The notes below the pieces were generated by a model. That model made no database searches. It saw only the letters and a list, made by a program, of their open reading frames with translations, and was not told where the DNA came from. 64,000 bases of DNA from Escherichia coli. Lineage in GTDB: Bacteria > Pseudomonadota > Gammaproteobacteria > Enterobacterales > Enterobacteriaceae. Made by a program: the position numbers and the translations under genes. Shown piece by piece: positions 15,186 through 16,850 of this stretch. The DNA is taken from the NCBI RefSeq assembly GCF_003334335.1, contig NZ_QOWQ01000023.1. The stretch is one strand, 5' to 3'. Within the stretch, counting starts at the first letter, position 1; each line of letters begins with the position of its first letter.

Positions 15186-15475
15186 TTTCAAATGTAGAGA
15201 TTATTTTATCGATATATCATGGGGTTATGTTATTCAGCATCACTATTCAGGAGGCTCAATAGCGGGGTACTATACCATAACAACAGGAAGCGCCTGTCTC
15301 ATTGCAAAAGAAAATTGAGATCCTCTCAAGGCATGAAGCTCTCACGAAGTGATGGAAATAATCTTATTAGCCGTTAACTTTGTTAAGGCCAATGATAAAC
15401 AATCCAGGTTCGACGATAAATAAAAAATCACACATTAAACTCTGGTGATATATCTCCCTGCTAATAGCATTGATA

Positions 15476-15504
15476 GAGAAAAAAGAACCCAATAAATATT
15501 GGGT
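15476..15504 (-). terminator. candidate intrinsic terminator after yjbM
   Basis: CCCAAT-AAAT-ATTGGG stem followed on minus strand by TTCTTTTTTCTC. Confidence 0.5.
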
Positions 15505-15547
15505 CCTTTTATATAATGCCTTCCATACTATCGAAGAACTTCACATA

Positions 15548-16255
15548 TTATTTCTCCGATTTAACCCCGAACAAATCATAAATTAATTTAGAAGTGTCTG
15601 TAAGTATTTTAATCTCTTCCTTTGAGGTTGGGTCAAACGACTTCGCGAAGCTAATTAATTGTGGTGCAGCATCTCGCATTTTGCTTAAAATATCAGGATC
15701 GAGCGTTCCTTCATTCACCAGATGTGACATCTTATCCAGATAGCCATCAAAATTCATTTCTCCCCCATCAGCCAGACGCTTCATCTCTCCCAGGTACTTC
15801 TTCATATCACGTTGAGATAATTTTTCAAACTGAGCTTTCAGGTAGCTCTCATTATTTTCATTAATATACACTGTTTCTGATAAATCTGCGTAGGCACTAG
15901 AATATGAAAGTGAAATTAACAGCGAAGCAAATAATTTTAAGCTGTTGTCATCATGTTCCTGGCAGGCATTAACAAACGTTAAAAAACCAGAACCTATTGC
16001 TTGAAAATGTATATTCGCTAAAGGTTCATTATCCTTAGATTCCTCATAAAATAGCTGAACCGTGGAGGGAAGGTCATTCTTAGTTTCTACATCAAAAGTA
16101 CATTGTTCAATGGGCATTGCATCTTTATTATCCCCAGGATTACATATACTATTAATCGCGAAATGAAAAATAGCCCGGTCAACAACTGATGCAATAAAGT
16201 CACGATCGTTTAAATCCTCATCAGTGCAATCGTCAATATACTTATTGACCCACAT
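15548..16255 (-). CDS. yjbM: uncharacterised protein YjbM (about 235 aa), AT-rich ORFan
   Basis: ATG at rc(16253..16255) gives MWVNKYIDDCTDEDLNDRDF...; a GTG 11 codons upstream would overlap yjbL. Confidence 0.7.
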   Translation of the reverse strand: MWVNKYIDDCTDEDLNDRDFIASVVDRAIFHFAINSICNPGDNKDAMPIEQCTFDVETKNDLPSTVQLFYEESKDNEPLANIHFQAIGSGFLTFVNACQEHDDNSLKLFASLLISLSYSSAYADLSETVYINENNESYLKAQFEKLSQRDMKKYLGEMKRLADGGEMNFDGYLDKMSHLVNEGTLDPDILSKMRDAAPQLISFAKSFDPTSKEEIKILTDTSKLIYDLFGVKSEK

Positions 16256-16278
16256 TTTGAGATCATTTATTTGCACAA

Positions 16279-16533
16279 TTAAAAACACATTTTTTTACGT
16301 GCATGCCATAAATTATGCGTGATTCGTTGAATAAACAAATCTATTTTTGCAATAATTATATCCCGATGACGCAGCGCTGCATAATCAATAGATTTACCAT
16401 ATATATTATTTAATTTACCTTTGATTGAACCTCTATTATCTAATTTATCTTTGATTGCATCTTCATTATCGAATTGATTTGAATTGAGTGTTTTATTAAA
16501 GTATCCAGTTGCACCGGGTATTATCTTCAACAT
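16279..16533 (-). CDS. yjbL: uncharacterised small protein YjbL (84 aa), AT-rich ORFan
   Basis: [28 protein letters not shown]...; directly upstream of and co-oriented with yjbM. Confidence 0.65.
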
Positions 16534-16850
16534 GATTCATCTACCTTTTTTGTCGTACCGTGTCCTCCTTATAATTCTTTTGCCATCTGGTCACTATCAA
16601 AAATCGCTCATAATTTCTGAACTACAGGTATGCGTTTAAACCCAGTTAAATAAATAGCGAGTTAACTTGAAGCAATTTATTTAAAAATGAATTATTAATT
16701 ATTATCGTGTTGATAATGGTACGACAAGGCAACATAACACCTTACCTACAAAACAGAAAATCAACATTACGGCAACAATAAGGGTTCTCGGTGTTTTTCC
16801 TGGAACATGGTAAAGTAAGGACATTCTTAACCCCCACTTTGAGGTGCCCG

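Follow-up and report, generated by a model that had tools for sequence, protein, structure and literature searches.

It has been described that elements with a dusA-associated integrase exchange dusA's 5' end for a sequence of their own (Farrugia et al. 2015, PMC4482086), and K-12 is not mentioned in that paper. It has also been reported that the chromosome of E. coli carries AT-rich orphan 'fossil' genes, icaR (yjgL) and icaT (yfdF), with about 35% GC and of unknown origin, which occur widely in phylogroups A, B1, D, and E, are largely absent from B2, and are frequently disrupted, and whose promoter and 5' untranslated region (UTR) are conserved between strains (PMC9241512). The genes yjbL and yjbM, which lie between zur and dusA, are listed in a phylostratigraphy study as a young two-gene operon (PMC12218254). 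The stretch of DNA analyzed here, referred to as the window, is 64,000 nucleotides of Escherichia coli (assembly GCF_003334335.1, contig NZ_QOWQ01000023.1) with the K-12-like gene order qor, pspG, dusA(-), yjbM(-), yjbL(-), zur(+), yjbJ, dinF, lexA. In its initial annotation the zur-dusA interval was described as an AT-rich cassette of two ORFans, possibly a defence or toxin-like pair, left behind by a decayed dusA-targeted element. We find it very probable that the interval holds two independent relics, one being an orphan gene of the DUF2713 family that is broken by a frameshift and lies in a separate insertion, and the other being the scar of a prophage at the start of dusA.

Two co-oriented open reading frames (ORFs) in an AT-rich stretch are indeed present between zur and dusA. 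The yjbL ORF (16279..16533, minus strand) encodes 84 aa, and the yjbM ORF (15548..16288, minus strand) encodes 246 aa from a GTG or 235 aa from its first ATG, which is the position aligned to residue 1 of the Pfam DUF2713 model; the two ORFs overlap by 10 nt. When GC content was computed in windows it was 0.29-0.39 over 15200-16800 compared to 0.50-0.58 in dusA and zur, and GC at third codon positions was 0.20 in yjbL and 0.33 in yjbM compared to 0.53-0.62 in the neighbour genes, which supports the foreign composition that had been noted for this segment. However, the two ORFs are not two genes in other strains. A single gene named 'DUF2713 family protein' is at the same place in TUM1223 (318 aa), KK19-02 (334 aa), O157:H7 F8952 (318 aa), and JNE181771 (338 aa), and in a genome that is 100% identical to the window the NCBI Prokaryotic Genome Annotation Pipeline (PGAP) has one pseudogene covering both yjbL and yjbM (15548..16533, minus strand), 'DUF2713 domain-containing protein, frameshifted'. 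The lesion was located by nucleotide alignment to a poly-A run at 16290..16296 on the minus strand (reference position 268), where K-12 reads CACGT-AAAAAAA-TG with seven As (A7) and an intact sister allele that is 97% identical has eight (A8), and when one A was restored to the K-12 copy a 328-aa open frame was obtained. At this composition, 318 codons in a row without a stop have a probability of 1.5e-11, and because it is as low as about 1e-11 we take the intact alleles to be real genes. The Pfam DUF2713 model (PF10897) matched YjbM with an E-value of 2e-167, from position 1 to 235 of 235 in the model and residues 12-246 in YjbM; this model is built on the YjbM part only, and YjbL alone had no Pfam match, although the most conserved 17-residue stretch of the family, a helix, sits in the YjbL part. 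These alignments indicate that yjbL and yjbM together are one DUF2713 gene broken by the loss of 1 bp and not two genes. The contraction of the run from A8 to A7 shifts the frame after codon 81 and thereby gives rise to the two ORFs. The DUF2713 gene in this window is dead and yjbL and yjbM do not work as a pair; the cassette of two genes is an artefact of annotating across a frameshift, one already recognised by PGAP, in a family already in Pfam. What K-12 databases carry as two uncharacterised genes is in fact one broken gene, and it is because of this that knock-out, expression, and 'orphan operon' analyses of yjbL and yjbM in K-12 study a pseudogene. The right object of study is an intact allele, for example that of 318 aa from O157:H7 or that of 328 aa from commensals.

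The distribution of the interval was examined by megablast of window positions 14900..17100 against 5426 complete E. coli genomes. The interval was present in 4036 of them, with identities from more than 99% down to 80-90%, and 1043 had an empty site whose layout is identical to that of E. albertii. This bears out the presence/absence polymorphism of the zur-dusA interval on which the initial annotation had proposed to compare relatives. The 80-mer around the A7 run of K-12 was identical in 868 genomes, and A7 was also found in five of six sampled genomes that differ from this 80-mer by 1-2 mismatches. The strains in which A7 was seen are K-12, H10, O111, 00-3076, and MB06171, and the last two have an additional second 1-bp deletion. 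Strain 503025 has A8 and a 1-bp insertion elsewhere. The independent frameshifts outside the A7 run lie at reference positions 798 and 804, some genomes have IS1 insertions, and the Shigella copies in the AlphaFold database are fragments only. From these lesions the DUF2713 gene can be recognised as one that is recurrently inactivated. At the same time intact alleles are common, with clusters of 2579, 1591, 1491, 1126, and 637 member sequences. Whether PGAP calls a copy 'family protein' or 'domain-containing protein' does not tell if it is intact or broken.

The DUF2713 protein appears to be restricted to E. coli and Shigella. When 5.8 billion proteins were searched three times, 139, 117, and 148 hits were obtained, and among the matches listed all carry PF10897 except one weak non-family hit, and all with a source-given name are from E. 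coli except one partial Klebsiella pneumoniae entry. This entry is probably a fragment of the plasmid-borne IS26-blaSHV-12 unit; it has been reported that the IS26-blaSHV-12-IS26 plasmid unit carries the E. coli chromosomal fragment yjbJ-zur-yjbL-yjbM (PMC7319535). The plasmid matches to DUF2713 were mislabelled chromosomes and this IS26-blaSHV-12 unit. The same yjbJ-zur-yjbL-yjbM fragment was seen on a 17-kb plasmid of Klebsiella oxytoca (NZ_CP069917.1). A scan of both ORFs with NCBIfam gave no match, and a scan with PADLOC-DB v2 gave 0 families at E-values up to 1, the query in this case being the separate ORFs and not the intact full-length protein. Sequence searches of the PDB, both with a single sequence and with a profile, found nothing, Foldseek on AFDB50 found family members only, and the BFVD fold search found nothing; in all, three fold searches found nothing outside the DUF2713 family. 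The profile and structure searches by which the initial annotation had hoped to place the two proteins returned PF10897 and members of that family only. Two PHROGs entries, phrog_28007 and phrog_29005, match YjbL (1-40) and YjbM but they are these proteins themselves, and the gene is present in none of the INPHARED phage genomes, because of which the PHROGs entries are probably host DNA in prophage calls. Two AlphaFold models of the protein agree in topology: the N-terminus is disordered, three helices and a three-stranded sheet follow, and at the C-terminus there is a helical bundle that is predicted with confidence. The predicted local distance difference test (pLDDT) was 64 and 65 and the predicted template modelling score (pTM) 0.59, and the second run, with 16 sequences, did not improve the confidence. 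With moderate confidence, the intact product is predicted to be a soluble protein with a disordered N-terminus that carries a 10-aa repeat in variable copy number, a helical and three-stranded core, and a C-terminal helical bundle. This repeat is encoded by a 30-bp in-frame tandem repeat (16405..16475, minus strand) with a DAxKDKLDNR-like unit in 1, 2, or 3 copies depending on the allele, and it falls within the predicted disordered N-terminus.

The intact and broken copies belong to allele classes that are very old. Between the classes the number of synonymous substitutions per site (dS) is 0.70-0.84 and the ratio of nonsynonymous to synonymous substitutions (dN/dS) is 0.39-0.54, compared to a dS of 0.05-0.11 in the adjacent zur. 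Identity between alleles is 43-83% per 60-nt window in the coding region, mostly 50-80%, compared to 82-100% in the non-coding flanks of the block that carries the gene. Divergence leaps from about 2-10% in these flanks (15290..15547 and 16534..16697) to 20-50% in the coding sequence (CDS) within about 60 nt of the start and stop codons, and the block junctions are identical across five divergent alleles. This suggests that old alleles have been maintained by selection while recombination homogenised the flanks, and, taken with the frequent loss of the gene, it suggests a dispensable accessory protein in some antagonistic interaction. A more specific proposal is that DUF2713 is a species-restricted protein of orphan fold with ancient allele classes under balancing selection against a fast-evolving antagonist, either a single-gene anti-phage or abortive-infection sensor or a fossil type III secretion substrate acquired with E. 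coli type III secretion system 2 (ETT2), in which the poly-A run and the 10-aa repeat would act as on/off and length switches; this proposal is speculative and we consider it unlikely. It is unusual to see very old alleles between flanks that hardly differ, in a gene not found outside the species, but so far this is a curiosity and not a mechanism. Between K-12 and an empty-site strain, zur (16851..17366, plus strand) has a dS of 0.21 and 92.8% nucleotide identity, and dusA is 97.4% identical. This divergence of zur hints at old haplotypes that are linked around the polymorphic site.

The other relic is in dusA itself. The dusA CDS (14148..15185, minus strand), annotated by PGAP in identical genomes, encodes 345 aa and its body is 97% identical to that of an empty-site strain up to 15097. 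When K-12 was compared to the empty-site strain, homology extended over 14000..15097 and resumed at 16784, with 1686 bp replacing 133 bp, and the left break is in the codons for RF|S(V/I)APMLDW. This is at the attachment (att) region for dusA-associated integrases (15075..15095, minus strand; core ATGCTCGA at 15082..15089), and it is at the same place that dusA is split in GPEC1222 by a prophage of 38 kb that has a tyrosine integrase. The 5' end of K-12 dusA (15027..15188) and the end supplied by the GPEC1222 prophage, by which the N-terminus of DusA is restored as MHDNHETQKINQTSVMPEKTGVYWNS, have 88.9% nucleotide identity over 162 bp. A dusA mimic of about 107 bp that is 82-84% identical to the K-12 dusA 5' end was found in 8 phage records, and in phage mEp460 it is 86 bp from the integrase gene, int. 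When the N-termini of DusA were surveyed at 80 Enterobacterales loci, M..ES.T..PA[HY]RF was found in E. albertii, Citrobacter, Enterobacter, Lelliottia, Kluyvera, and others, and loci with an integrase directly upstream of dusA had MHENKE-type N-termini. The former is the type of the 1043 empty-site E. coli among the 5426, and this ancestral N-terminus (MPAESHTVYPAYRF), which E. albertii shares, is shorter than that of K-12; in the ancestral layout zur is 155 bp from dusA. A K-12-type dusA 5' end was also found in an unrelated context in a soil metagenome-assembled genome. From the end of homology at the att core, the 82-89% identity to phages, and the different N-terminus of the outgroups, the first approximately 100 nt of K-12 dusA (about 28 codons) and the region upstream of it are identified as an element-derived prophage scar. 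The replacement 5' end is assigned to 15090..15188 (minus strand) and the scar-type upstream region, which has the motif GGGGTACTATACCATAAC at 15263..15281 and is 99% shared with strain HH45 that has the scar but not the block, to 15189..15289 (minus strand). The origin in phage of the N-terminal 28 residues and the upstream region of the reference K-12 dusA matters for studies on DusA expression and its N-terminus.

A probable course of events is that an old dusA-targeting prophage replaced the 5' end and that the rest of it was later deleted, leaving the replacement end. No integrase and no att-like repeat had been seen in the initial annotation, and this was confirmed. A tblastn search with a dusA-associated integrase on 15000..16900 had a best E-value of 0.22, which was in DUF2713 frames, and the att region of about 21 bp is present only once in the 64-kb window at up to 3 mismatches, with no second copy anywhere in it. 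A displaced ancestral dusA 5' fragment was not found near zur. A true lysogen shows both the pair of att repeats and the displaced fragment. In the search for integrase remnants a 39-bp match of 74% identity (E 0.026) was judged to be due to chance. The motif GG.G.TACTATA.CATAAC was seen upstream of dusA in the ancestral, the K-12-type, and the phage copies (mEp460 and the GPEC1222 prophage); the case for a purely ancestral origin of the TACTATA motif to the left of the block is weakened by its presence in the phage copies. The motif may belong to a dusA promoter that is mimicked by phages and may also be a short repeat for prophage deletion, in which case the deletion may have taken place between its copies upstream of the phage and native dusA. 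The GPEC1222 prophage has two genes at its att-distal end, one for a Panacea-domain protein and one hypothetical, in a typical position for prophage accessory genes.

The DUF2713 gene is in a discrete AT-rich block of 1.4 kb (15290..16697, minus strand) with an overall GC of 34.2%, whose right edge is approximate within a few bases. The block consists of an intrinsic terminator (15481..15510, minus strand), an inverted repeat with a 13-pair stem and a T-run, then the gene, and then its promoter and 5' leader (16534..16697, minus strand), which between alleles are 82-100% identical per 60-nt window and in which the hexamers that look like a promoter (16600..16571) are no more than matches to the consensus. 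That the gene has its own terminator ahead of dusA had been noted before, and it is real, but at these coordinates and not at 15476..15504. To the right is native zur-proximal intergenic DNA (16698..16850, plus strand), and an Rfam scan of the interval gave sub-threshold noise only. Occupied and empty sites were compared by BLAST and local alignment since global alignment with MAFFT misplaced the gap. The block is absent from the empty-site genomes and from HH45, where K-12 positions 14399..15289 are joined directly to sequence homologous to 16698 onward. Removal of 15290 to about 16697 from K-12 gives the contiguous GGAATATGCG...AATGTGACAGC layout that is seen in HH45, and the HH45 junction sequence GGAATATGCGTATCAAGATAATGTGACAGC aligns with the ancestral dusA-upstream region with a score of 29 compared to 9.5 +/- 1.6 for shuffled sequences. 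No terminal repeats were found at the ends of the block. A clean separate insertion is favoured over a deletion remnant because removal of the block recreates the contiguous HH45 sequence that aligns across the junction with the ancestral intergenic region. As judged from these alignments the block looks like a clean separate insertion and not demonstrable cargo, and on present evidence the DUF2713 gene is probably not cargo of the dusA element. A horizontally acquired orphan gene of about 320-340 aa, restricted to E. coli and Shigella and having its own promoter, leader, and terminator, would have inserted in the zur-dusA intergenic region. Of the initial proposal of a decayed dusA-targeted element, what stands is the scar at the dusA 5' end; the DUF2713 gene as its left-over cargo is not supported, given that no phage or true plasmid in the collections searched carries the gene and given the geometry of HH45.

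Several points weigh against the explanation by two independent relics. The HH45-type scar without the block was found in only 2 of the 5426 genomes and this type could be a secondary deletion instead of the state before insertion, and it is ambiguous where the left flank comes from because the TACTATA motif to the left of the block is also in phage copies, beside int. The lack of fold relatives carries less weight than it would seem to because the models are only moderate (pLDDT 64-65, pTM 0.59), and it is possible that remote homologues were missed by the word-indexed search. Finally, slippage by -1 on the A7 run would give back exactly the intact sequence (HARKKNVFL), and K-12 may make a low level of full-length DUF2713 protein in this way. 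By an alternative explanation, an island or prophage that targeted dusA has decayed, its integrase and att repeat having been lost by deletion, and the whole AT-rich interval, including the gene, is the cargo end of it. The phage-type dusA 5' end is only about 100 bp from the block, block and scar are together in all of the roughly ten block-bearing loci that were looked at closely, and the numbers are uneven, with 4036 genomes that have the block against the two just mentioned. The block also starts at about the same place as the integrase of mEp460 (about 101 bp and 86 bp, respectively, from the dusA ATG), and there are other genera with an element-type dusA 5' end, a small AT-rich cargo such as RelB/RelE, and no integrase. 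However, DUF2713 is in none of 50,697 phage records and in no true plasmid, neither a displaced ancestral dusA 5' fragment nor a second att is found beside zur, and the HH45 sequence recreated by deletion of the block aligns with the ancestral region, which two independent deletions are not expected to give. We therefore regard this alternative as unlikely.

That the K-12 allele is alive, with A7 as a slippery site at which -1 ribosomal or transcriptional slippage restores a low, regulated amount of full-length protein, or with A7/A8 as a phase-variation switch, draws on the exact restoration by a -1 shift, on the abundance of both states (868 or more genomes with the K-12 80-mer and 2579 member sequences for the intact 328-aa allele), and on the presence of A7 on at least two haplotype backgrounds. 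It is nevertheless very unlikely, since the run is limited to the K-12/JNE allele class and is not conserved in other classes, which read GA7, ATCA5, and GATAATAA, since plain decay is shown by the other frameshifts and the IS1 insertions, and since seven As are short for efficient slippage of RNA polymerase; no stimulatory structure was seen, though none was sought. Of all the alternatives the least probable, to an extreme degree, is that yjbL and yjbM are a working two-component system in K-12, either toxin and antitoxin or a two-gene anti-phage defence pair. Overlapping co-oriented ORFs, one small and one larger, that are AT-rich and beside an integration hotspot do give that appearance, but the split comes from the loss of 1 bp in a homopolymer, thousands of genomes have the ORF intact and in one piece, there are not two separately encoded conserved partners, other strains have different frameshifts at other positions, and PADLOC, NCBIfam, and Pfam gave no match to a toxin, antitoxin, or defence family. 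With regard to function, an idea that we consider quite unlikely is that the intact protein is, as are icaR and icaT, a fossil of type III secretion, as substrate or effector of ETT2 or of a pINV-like system. The gene has in common with icaR and icaT a GC of about 35%, its organisation as one gene under its own promoter, widespread attrition, and presence in many E. coli. Its Shigella copies are fragments, and it is absent from strains with names that suggest phylogroup B2, for example O1:K1:H7 avian pathogenic E. coli (APEC), the phylogroup being taken from names only. The N-terminal 40-60 residues or so are predicted to be disordered with moderate confidence, and the first 20 are rich in S, T, N, I, and G with 0-1 acidic residues by a composition test that is crude and uncontrolled. 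On the other hand, no MxiE box (consensus GTATCGTTTTTTTANAG overlapping the -35) was found anywhere in the window at up to 3 mismatches, and the best MxiE-like site near the predicted -35 agrees at 11 of 16 specified positions by eye, which is not significant. There is also no fold similarity to known effectors and no adjacent chaperone, and the gene is not among the chromosomal genes (gem1 and gem3) that are credited to earlier RNA-seq work (PMC9241512).

The zur-dusA intervals of other Enterobacterales were also looked at. Five of these loci have a similar scar, with an element-type MH.N.E N-terminus of DusA, low-GC filler, a small cargo, and no integrase within 5 kb. In Superficieibacter this cargo is a RelB/RelE pair, confirmed by NCBIfam, and in a Klebsiella sp. 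it is a 463-aa ORF that is PI-PLC-like by eye and has no NCBIfam match. In most genera of the Enterobacteriaceae the native interval encodes a 162-aa protein and a PorV/TraF-like outer-membrane protein of 400-435 aa at host-like GC. Both of these are missing from Escherichia, where the ancestral gap between zur and dusA is about 155 bp.

When the locus is compared to known systems, its likeness to the dusA-associated integrase elements is in the breakpoint between K-12 and the ancestral type, which is at the att core, and in the 5' end of K-12 dusA, which is homologous to the replacement end beside int in mEp460 and in a resident prophage. Unlike those elements, there is no integrase, attL/attR pair, or phage gene here but only about 100-200 bp of element DNA, and the adjacent DUF2713 block is found in none of them. 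The resemblance to icaR and icaT is by analogy and is a lead only; for these two, secretion has been demonstrated and the MxiE box is functional, whereas the DUF2713 gene has no MxiE box and could only be a candidate for secretion. Long-lived polymorphisms of E. coli include fliC, fimA, and the O-antigen genes, which encode surface antigens with a known selective agent. The DUF2713 gene is like them in having deep allele classes in a conserved slot with recombining flanks, but its protein has no signal peptide that is evident by eye. Lastly, the match to Pfam PF10897 and to the EcoCyc entries yjbL and yjbM is end-to-end in YjbM, and PGAP names intact copies 'DUF2713 family protein', but the Pfam model is YjbM-sized with 235 residues whereas the real protein is about 90 residues longer at its N-terminus, and the most conserved helix of the family is credited in the K-12 annotation to the separate gene yjbL.

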